Source: a phage
Assembly (NCBI GenBank): GCA_037431425.1
Contig: GCA_037431425.1_4129.1
Direction: 5' to 3' (one strand)
DNA: 64,000 bases
The notes beneath the pieces are model-generated. The model made no database searches, had not been told where the DNA came from, and worked only from the letters and a program-made list of their open reading frames with translations. Position numbers and translations under genes: made by a program. Positions 28,103-29,033 of this stretch are shown one piece after another. How positions within the stretch are numbered: the stretch's first letter is position 1; each line of letters begins with the position of its first letter.

Positions 28103-29033
28103 ATGGTTTTGGGTAAAAGAAAAACCAAACAAGAATTTATCTATGATGCTATGAATATTCATGGGGATAAGTATGATTATAGTGAGTCGGTTTATATAAA
28201 CAACAAAACCGAAATAAAGATAATTTGTAAAGAAGAACGGTCATGTGTTCTACCAACGCCCAGACCTTCATATACATGGTAATGGTGGCAAAGGTAATGG
28301 GTGTAGTAAGTGTAATGAACGTTACTCAAAAGAAACCACTGAAGCATTAAAACTTTTAAATGAAGTACACAATTACTCATATACATATCCAAATTTCATT
28401 TATAAAAATAATAAACAAAAGATAGATATAGTTTGTAAGGAACACAATTGTTTATTTGAATTGAGCTACCGAAGTCATTTAAAAGGTATCGGGTGTAAAA
28501 AATGTAAAATTAAAAAATACATTCCCTTATTTGAGAAAATACATGGTTCACGTTATGATTATAGTTTATCTGAATATAATGGACATGATAAACCAATAAA
28601 AATAATTTGCCCACTTCATGGAGTATTTGAACAGAATCCATTTTATCATTTAGATGGATGTGGCTGTCAGAAATGTGGAAATATAATTTCCGCAGGTGAG
28701 CAACGAATTATGCAGTATTTGGAAAAACGAAATATAGAATATGTTCATCAGTATCGTTTTTTAGATTGTAAATATAAAAATACACTACCATTCGATTTTT
28801 ACGTAGAATCAAAGAATATATGTATTGAATTTGATGGTGAGCATCATTATGATATTGTTGAATATTTTGGCGGCGAAGAATCTTTTAAAAAGCAAAAAAT
28901 AAAAGATAGTATAAAAGATGATTATTGTAAGAAGAATGGAATTAAACTTATTAGGATATCCAAATGTGATTGTGATAAAATAGGATATTCGTATATAGAA
29001 CATATTTTAAATGGAGTAATCAATGAATTATGA
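28103..29033 (+). pseudogene. Zinc-ribbon/Vsr-like endonuclease-like gene with apparent +1 frameshift near 28235
   Basis: Frame A (28103-28282) gives the first HG-x-YDYS...ICKE repeat; frame B (track ORF 28245-29033, GTG start) continues with two more repeats and an EFDGEHHY nuclease-like motif. Confidence 0.55.

Follow-up and report, generated by a model that had tools for sequence, protein, structure and literature searches.

Organization of the locus

The DNA analysed here, hereafter the window, is a stretch of 64,000 nucleotides, and it belongs to an Asteriusvirus-type jumbo coliphage (121Q / PBECO4 / ph0011). Between a ClpS-like gene and a KTSC-domain gene, it contains an inserted cassette with the gene of an endonuclease, which on comparison with its homologues is divided over two reading frames, ORF A and ORF B. 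Both open reading frames were recovered from the ORF list where the first-pass annotation of this DNA had recorded them. The features of the locus are the following:

27473-28018, plus strand: ClpS-like gene, the upstream neighbour, kept in relatives with and without the insert
28030-28088, plus strand: terminator hairpin of the ClpS-like gene (A-run, long stem, T-run)
28093-29022, plus strand: inserted cassette of 930 bp, from the alignment with ph0011, the closest relative
28095-28105, plus strand: Shine-Dalgarno sequence (AAAGGGG) and ATG of the endonuclease gene
28103-28282, plus strand: ORF A, 59 aa, ATG start, frame 2; endonuclease codons 1 to 43-44, then about 15 out-of-frame codons and TAA
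28229-28240, plus strand: frameshift site, AAA GAA GAA CGG, with one base too many, placed by homology
28245-29033, plus strand: ORF B, 262 aa, frame 0 (the +1 frame), first possible start GTG
28332-28514, plus strand: zinc module 2, within ORF B
28515-28685, plus strand: zinc module 3, within ORF B
28686-29030, plus strand: Vsr-like nuclease domain, within ORF B
28794-28916, plus strand: catalytic core, all residues intact in the window; D231 (28794-96), E242 (28827-29), D244 (28833-35), H248 (28845-47), D268 (28905-07), K271 (28914-16)
28827-28850, plus strand: EFDGEHHY motif
29023-29568, plus strand: KTSC-domain gene, the downstream neighbour (Pfam KTSC, E 4e-14)
29027-29238, strand not assigned: imported donor flank, a co-conversion-like tract

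Insertion slot and intact homologues

The alignment with ph0011 shows the cassette as an insertion, for which a 2-nt AT microhomology makes a placement at 28095-29024 equally valid. It is absent in 37 of 37 related phage records, which match in two pieces (a span of 1368 bp in the records and of 2301 bp in the query), and at the DNA level the insert was found in no phage record searched. The insert starts a few bases past the T-run of the terminator of the ClpS-like gene. The hairpin of this terminator has a folding energy of -23.3 kcal/mol (z = -4.0), with 0 of 200 shuffles folding as well, and the same hairpin is present upstream of the endonuclease gene in L004, L006, L009 and L010. At the other end, the first 11 nt of the KTSC gene overlap the 3' end of the endonuclease gene, including its stop codon. 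The ClpS-like gene matches Pfam ClpS with an E value of 5e-4, which is below the curated cut-off, and is annotated in ph0011 as a ClpS domain protein. It is adjoined by a gene for an IF3 homologue (26956-27459), and this pair is kept across Asteriusvirus relatives; for the corresponding IF3 gene of L002, matches to Pfam IF3_N and IF3_C have been recorded.

A strong Shine-Dalgarno sequence was brought in by the insert itself, the anti-SD duplex at ORF A having an energy of -7.3 kcal/mol and beating 94% of the 53 long-ORF starts in the window. A scan restricted to sigma-70-type sites gave no convincing sigma-70-like promoter between the terminator and the start, the sites in the region falling below those of shuffles.

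The first-pass annotation had suggested a comparison with intact homologues, and this yielded five single-frame proteins (P0002, P0003, P0010, P0042 and P0047) of 294-307 aa with 52-63% identity. The genes of all five are located in other jumbo-phage contigs after the ClpS terminator and overlap the KTSC start. Since 5/5 intact homologues occupy exactly the same slot, the endonuclease gene is, judged by this synteny, a member of a site-specific lineage of free-standing endonuclease genes, with its slot between the ClpS terminator and the KTSC start.

Zinc modules and nuclease domain

The frame-corrected product has 309 aa and would comprise three zinc-binding modules and a C-terminal Vsr-like nuclease. 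Zinc module 1 is cut in two, its N-terminal half with the first Cys being encoded in ORF A and its C-terminal half in ORF B, which also encodes modules 2 and 3 and the nuclease domain. The modules share the pattern H-G-x-Y-D-Y-S ... I-x-I-C-x-x-H-G-x-F ... G-C-x-K-C. It had been noticed earlier that this unit occurs three times, with the first copy in another frame, and pairwise local alignment of the modules bears this out, the scores lying 13-16 SD above those of shuffles and 0 of 500 shuffles scoring as high. A lack of repeat similarity in the short upstream ORF had been named as the finding that would count against a common gene; the part from ORF A by itself does show this similarity, with z = 10-12 against modules 2 and 3.

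Predicted zinc ligands (Cys, His ... Cys-x2-Cys) were found in each module. In ORF B, the putative sets are C111/H114/C131/C134 and C169/H172/C188/C191, and that of module 1 (C42/H47/C67/C70) is full only after frame correction. The corrected protein scores 22.5 bits for Pfam DUF4379 ('probable treble clef zinc finger') against a cut-off of 24.5, and 18.7 bits for DUF723 against a cut-off of 20.9. Among 64 homologues, DUF4379 was matched by 61, DUF723 by 52 and the CapR homology domain by six at E <= 0.001. Modules of this kind, which are repeated DNA-binding zinc fingers, were reported from phage homing endonucleases by Barth et al. (PMC10448857).

Structures were predicted for ORF B and for the intact homologue P0002. 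Fold comparison of the predicted structures shows a C-terminal nuclease domain with a Vsr-like fold, and Foldseek with the P0002 model gave the same top matches. Searches of PDB sequences with the single sequence, with a full-length profile and with a nuclease-only profile gave nothing significant, so that the nuclease domain is identified by fold comparison alone; the best PDB profile match was the Vsr-like domain of AbaSI (E 0.49), with which the motifs agree. The catalytic columns are invariant or nearly so in alignments of 65 and of 24 sequences, and the window has kept every residue with this degree of conservation in the family (E199, D231, E242, D244, H248, D268 and K271), E199 being one that is nearly invariant in the family alignments. 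The EFDGEHHY motif, which the first-pass annotation had pointed out as nuclease-like, includes E242, G245 and H248, and these are invariant in 65 homologues. The description of the protein as a zinc-ribbon/Vsr-like endonuclease, also given there, agrees with the three zinc modules and the Vsr-like fold. The order of residues in the family follows the composite EDxHD motif of I-Bth0305I, and on this basis the nuclease of the window may provisionally be assigned to that motif.

The label HNH endonuclease, which is attached to PHROG 559 and to many records, was considered and found to be without support, there being no HNH Pfam match in the corrected protein or its homologues and a fold of the Vsr-like type; as a name for the family (e.g. 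NC_019401.1, NC_047945.1), it appears to be a misnomer. A search of the protein collection returned 6164 homologues, including ORF B itself (P0001). PHROG 9084 (187 positions) was also matched, which shows that shorter family members with fewer modules exist. No paralogues of the endonuclease were found elsewhere in the 64-kb window. Family members are located at 11 places in Klebsiella phage KP13-7 (OP617745.1) and at three in Asteriusvirus ECO103 4-12-1, all of which lie outside the ClpS/KTSC slot, and OR844650.1 and others also carry several.

Reading frames and the frameshift site

Frame B contains no stop codon from 28224 onwards, the stop of frame A is at 28280-28282, and any join of the two must therefore fall within 28224-28282. 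PHROG 559 matches the joined product in a single stretch (residues 5-303) across the junction with an E value of 2.9e-67, and the homology confirms ORF A and ORF B as two frames of one gene. The join had earlier been put at about 28235, and homology now puts the junction at 28229-28240, in the context TGT AAA GAA GAA CGG TCA TGT G; the frameshifted allele carries the junction sequence AAAGAAGAACGG. The resemblance between the joined sequence and the third repeat, on which the earlier join was based, is reproduced, in that IICKE-NGHVFYQRPDLHIHG aligns with IICPLHG-VFEQNPFYHLDG.

At the junction, the two closest intact homologues read CNLRKHRF and CNSKNHRF, that is, C-x4-H-x-F. When one base is taken out of the window sequence, C-K-E-N-G-H-V-F (or K-K-N-G-H-V, or K-E-E-G-H-V) is obtained, which has the same C-x4-H-x-F spacing. 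The apparent +1 frameshift of the first-pass annotation thus corresponds to one extra base relative to the single-frame homologues. By homology, the lesion is a one-base insertion (+1 frameshift), the identity of the extra base being ambiguous within 28229-28240. A two-base deletion was rejected, because it leaves one residue too many compared with the C-x4-H-x-F of the two closest homologues.

Reality and age of the frameshift

Three carriers of the frameshifted allele were compared, namely the window, the ENA MEGAHIT metagenome contig k141_29390 (350 kb; ERZ27257139) and the NCBI contig JBLGDS010000004 (GCA_047444555.1); the ENA relative is referred to as L011 and the NCBI relative as L003/L012. 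The junction is identical in 3/3 carrier assemblies. The carriers differ mutually at 74 columns of the shared 6.8 kb and hence are separate genomes, and the occurrence of the same junction in three non-identical assemblies shows that the frameshift is heritable and not a read error. It has been considered that the break is a sequencing or assembly artefact and that the real phage gene is intact, since one-base indels are common in assemblies and one of the other assemblies (L003/L012) has a different gene broken by a 1-nt insertion. This is extremely improbable, however, given the junction common to the window, the ENA MEGAHIT contig and the NCBI assembly, the lack of any long homopolymer at the junction (the longest run is AAA), and the presence of the exact 262-aa ORF B in five contigs of the protein collection. 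A gapped DNA pattern for an intact allele of the same gene gave no match in viral, metagenome or genome contigs, which shows the rarity of such an allele there.

Within the endonuclease gene, the carriers show one difference, which is synonymous and located at 28132. Substitutions among the three number 2-4 per kb in the region 27001-31000 compared with 10-25 or more elsewhere (19.5 kb), and this low-diversity valley of about 4 kb is centred on the endonuclease gene. The longest substitution-free run extends from 28132 to 29671, and the three longest runs (1539, 910 and 896 bp) all adjoin the insert. The valley is a shared young haplotype round the insertion; it shows that the allele arose not long ago and was afterwards carried by recombination into different backgrounds, at least three of which can be distinguished. 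The valley was also considered as a sign of ongoing homing, and this was set aside, as picking the carriers of a young allele yields a valley regardless.

ORF B has no second lesion, and its catalytic and putative zinc-ligand residues are intact. The identity to outgroups is 52-57% for the protein of the window and 53-56% for the intact relatives, indicating no acceleration of rate. From the absence of another lesion and of rate acceleration, it was concluded that the frameshift is young, with the limit that the carriers differ at one synonymous site only, so that the absence of further decay is without statistical power and dN/dS among the three carriers has only one substitution in the gene to work from.

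Import with donor flank

Next to the insert, the tract 29027-29238 has 30 differences from ph0011 in 212 bp, mostly synonymous or at third positions. In this tract, the window is 86.1% identical to ph0011 and 86.1% identical to PBECO4, whereas ph0011 and PBECO4 are 94.4% identical to each other; these figures hold for all three carrier genomes, and no sequenced phage was found above 88.5% identity. The 430 bp next to the tract are 100% identical to ph0011. Beyond the tract, there are five differences from ph0011 in the next ~1960 bp and three in the last ~900 bp upstream; identity to ph0011 is 98-100% for the flanks of the insert and 99.5-100% for those around the tract. Since ph0011 and PBECO4 agree in the tract, it is the carriers and not ph0011 that are the recombinants; a loss in ph0011 instead of a gain was rejected for the same reason, the carriers being the odd ones. 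The distribution of differences shows that the cassette was supplied, along with about 215 bp of its flank, by a diverged donor not represented among the sequenced phages.

A co-conversion tract is known from the seg genes of T4 and is a pattern of double-strand-break repair in homing. Homing was probably also the cause of the import seen here, and by analogy the cleavage target would be expected within the 5' part of the KTSC gene or close to it.

Origin and fate of the gene

The locus is best explained, with a probability of about 80%, as a recently imported and recently inactivated free-standing homing endonuclease gene, that is, a young pseudogene. Phage homing endonuclease genes are known to be marked by frameshifts, variable stops and deletions (PMC10448857), and the frameshift seen here is most likely an ordinary decay stage of the gain-decay-loss cycle of homing endonucleases. 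The enzyme would have been a free-standing homing endonuclease with three treble-clef/zinc-ribbon modules (DUF4379/DUF723, CapR-like) and a Vsr-like nuclease, whose gene entered a ph0011-like backbone by recombination together with ~215 bp of the donor's KTSC gene, in the pattern of double-strand-break repair after endonuclease cleavage (homing with co-conversion). A later one-base insertion in AAAGAAGAAC (28229-28238) would have split the first DNA-binding module over two frames. Ribosomes from the strong start of ORF A would now make a fragment of 59 aa and terminate at 28282, and the nuclease part would be left without an adequate start site of its own. It is thus probable that no active protein is made from the gene in the window. 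Several traits of the family are seen at the locus, namely presence or absence at a fixed site between conserved genes, the combination of nuclease and DNA-binding domains, and the donor flank; the reading frame is broken by the +1 frameshift. Of the three options that had been left open by the first-pass annotation, the decaying selfish endonuclease is the one that has held, a sequencing error is contradicted by the three non-identical assemblies and recoding is little supported.

Some observations do not sit easily with a young pseudogene. ORF B is undamaged and shows no excess divergence, the frameshifted allele has survived while recombination moved it into no fewer than three backgrounds, an ultra-rare CGG with a common +1 codon at the junction could allow some +1 slippage, and the GTG of ORF B lies 35 nt upstream of the ORF A stop, which makes termination-reinitiation conceivable. 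Residual formation of active enzyme by +1 slippage at CGG or by reinitiation at GTG 28245 was therefore weighed and is regarded as unlikely. By the slippage route, ribosomes would pause at CGG 28238-28240 and a fraction would shift to GGT and give the 309-aa nuclease (C-K-E-E-G-H-V-F); by the reinitiation route, ribosomes ending at 28282 would restart at GTG 28245 and give a 262-aa nuclease with two intact zinc modules. In either case, the frameshift, whether by chance or through selection, would attenuate an enzyme that may be toxic. Homing endonucleases need only very low concentrations to act, +1 shifts in E. coli can be set off by rare Arg codons, and reinitiation by bacterial ribosomes is possible some tens of nucleotides from a stop codon. 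CGG occurs once among the 15,448 codons of the long ORFs in the window (0.2% of Arg codons), the +1 codon GGT is common (29 per 1000), and a skip anywhere in 28229-28240 restores the spacing of the family. The undamaged state of ORF B and the sharing of the allele by three different backgrounds also favour residual expression, as does the existence of shorter members with fewer modules, e.g. those behind the match to PHROG 9084. For slippage, however, a P-site tRNA-Glu on GAA is unable to re-pair on AAC, and a shift from AAA to AAG would allow re-pairing, but there the codon that follows is the common GAA. No stimulatory sequence resembling a Shine-Dalgarno directly precedes the junction, the RNA fold of 28215-28340 is not significant (z = -1.4), the shift is found in 0 of 5 diverged same-slot homologues, and the out-of-frame CGG follows automatically from AAC-GGT, so that selection is unneeded. 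Programmed +1 frameshifting of the prfB type is characterized by conservation in diverged homologues and by a stimulator, both of which are missing in the gene of the window; the slow codon (CGG) is present here, but re-pairing from GAA to AAC is impossible. Little thus speaks for recoding at the junction. As to reinitiation, the Shine-Dalgarno sequence at the GTG of ORF B is weak (-2.4 kcal/mol, weaker than at 87% of gene starts), and the product would miss half of module 1, its first ~30 residues being modelled with low confidence. Independent translation of ORF B was likewise found to be without support, as it has a GTG only and this weak Shine-Dalgarno sequence. Nor does the low diversity round the insert argue for homing that still goes on, being expected for any young insertion allele once its carriers have been selected.

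In a bolder version of residual expression, which must be called quite unlikely, the stall at CGG and the small +1 fraction would act as a built-in throttle that holds a toxic enzyme at trace level while it is still able to spread; if true, this would explain the otherwise undamaged frameshifted cassette in three backgrounds. It has also been considered that the truncated gene was co-opted, e.g. with ORF B acting against competing phages or satellites, and that the break was adaptive. ORF B is intact, and there is a precedent in the conflicts of ICP1 with its phage satellites, in which endonuclease modules and nucleases have been domesticated and one frameshifted endonuclease gene has been discussed in this way (PMC10448857). 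Co-option is nevertheless very improbable, as ORF B has no start signal, the allele is young and confined to one narrow lineage, and the neighbourhood gives no hint of a defence role.

Comparison with known systems

The EDxHD (Vsr-like) family of I-Bth0305I also includes free-standing Hef-type enzymes of T4-like phages, and the motif residues of I-Bth0305I are D196/N208/H213/D222 (PMC3239194). The protein of the window gave no sequence match to I-Bth0305I, either as a single sequence or with profiles (3r3p and Vsr included). I-Bth0305I contains two NUMOD/helix-turn-helix motifs and is located in an intron, whereas the gene of the window would encode three C-x(2-4)-H...C-x2-C zinc modules of the DUF4379/DUF723 type and is free-standing in an intergenic slot. 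The spacing between H248 and D268 in the window is 20 residues, compared with nine for the equivalent spacing in I-Bth0305I.

Genes of the T4 seg/mob type resemble the present gene in being intergenic between conserved genes, in being present or absent among relatives and in having an adjoining donor tract; the likeness extends to the lack of a promoter-like site between terminator and start in the window. The seg genes are of the GIY-YIG type and the mob genes of the HNH type, whereas the nuclease of the window is Vsr-like and has other DNA-binding modules. Its host is a jumbo phage of another lineage than the T4-type phages, and homing and cleavage are predicted here from sequence.

The T5orf172 endonuclease genes of ICP1 are similar in their tandem zinc fingers of the CapR/DUF723/DUF4379 type, in their frequent frameshifts, deletions and presence or absence among close isolates, and in their location at boundaries of genetic exchange (PMC10448857). 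They differ in the nuclease, which is T5orf172 in ICP1 and Vsr-like and C-terminal in the window. Vsr and PvuRts1I/AbaSI are proteins of cells that act in repair or restriction, and their partner domains are different; for the nuclease of the window, no evidence of mismatch or modified-base recognition was found.

For annotation, ORF A and ORF B are better merged into a single entry, a disrupted homing endonuclease gene. The life cycle of homing endonucleases in jumbo coliphages is cleanly illustrated by this natural locus, which has a fixed slot, intact homologues, an import that can be dated and that brought in 215 bp of donor flank, and a first lesion that inactivates the gene. It is a correct but ordinary case, which leaves the current understanding unchanged. 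Among the papers searched, there was no biochemical study of proteins that combine tandem zinc modules with a Vsr-like nuclease, of which the homologues number thousands; the intact P0002 and P0003, together with the empty ph0011 site, constitute a ready test system.

Other possible mobile elements in the window and its relatives

The gene for the small subunit of ribonucleotide reductase (RNR), at 18233-20159 in the window, is split into parts of 236 and 142 aa by about 790 bp (about 18944-19730). This insertion holds a fragmented GIY-YIG-like ORF at 19075-19311 (FYVYVW..FYVGKGKGNRAYD) and a helix-turn-helix-like ORF at 19384-19566. It also has a group I intron match (RF00028, 19501-19684) of 34.5 bits against a gathering score of 50, with an E value of 7e-7; an Rfam scan of the whole window at the gathering threshold gave nothing. 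In L012, the RNR gene is uninterrupted and encodes 376 aa, and in L011 the insertion is present minus 292 bp. The RNR insertion looks like a second endonuclease or intron in the gain-decay-loss cycle.

An ORF of 263 aa in the window (31129-31920) is split into 49 and 225 aa in L003 (5885-6677) and L012 (12885-13677) by a one-base insertion near window position 31263, which may be a real mutation or else an assembly error. In L011, an insertion of ~1.57 kb (15709-17301, corresponding to about 33974-34013 in the window) lies between the gyrB-like and the topoisomerase IV/gyrA-like genes and encodes a DUF7487 protein of 530 aa. It is absent from the window and from L012, and it may be another mobile insertion between conserved genes.
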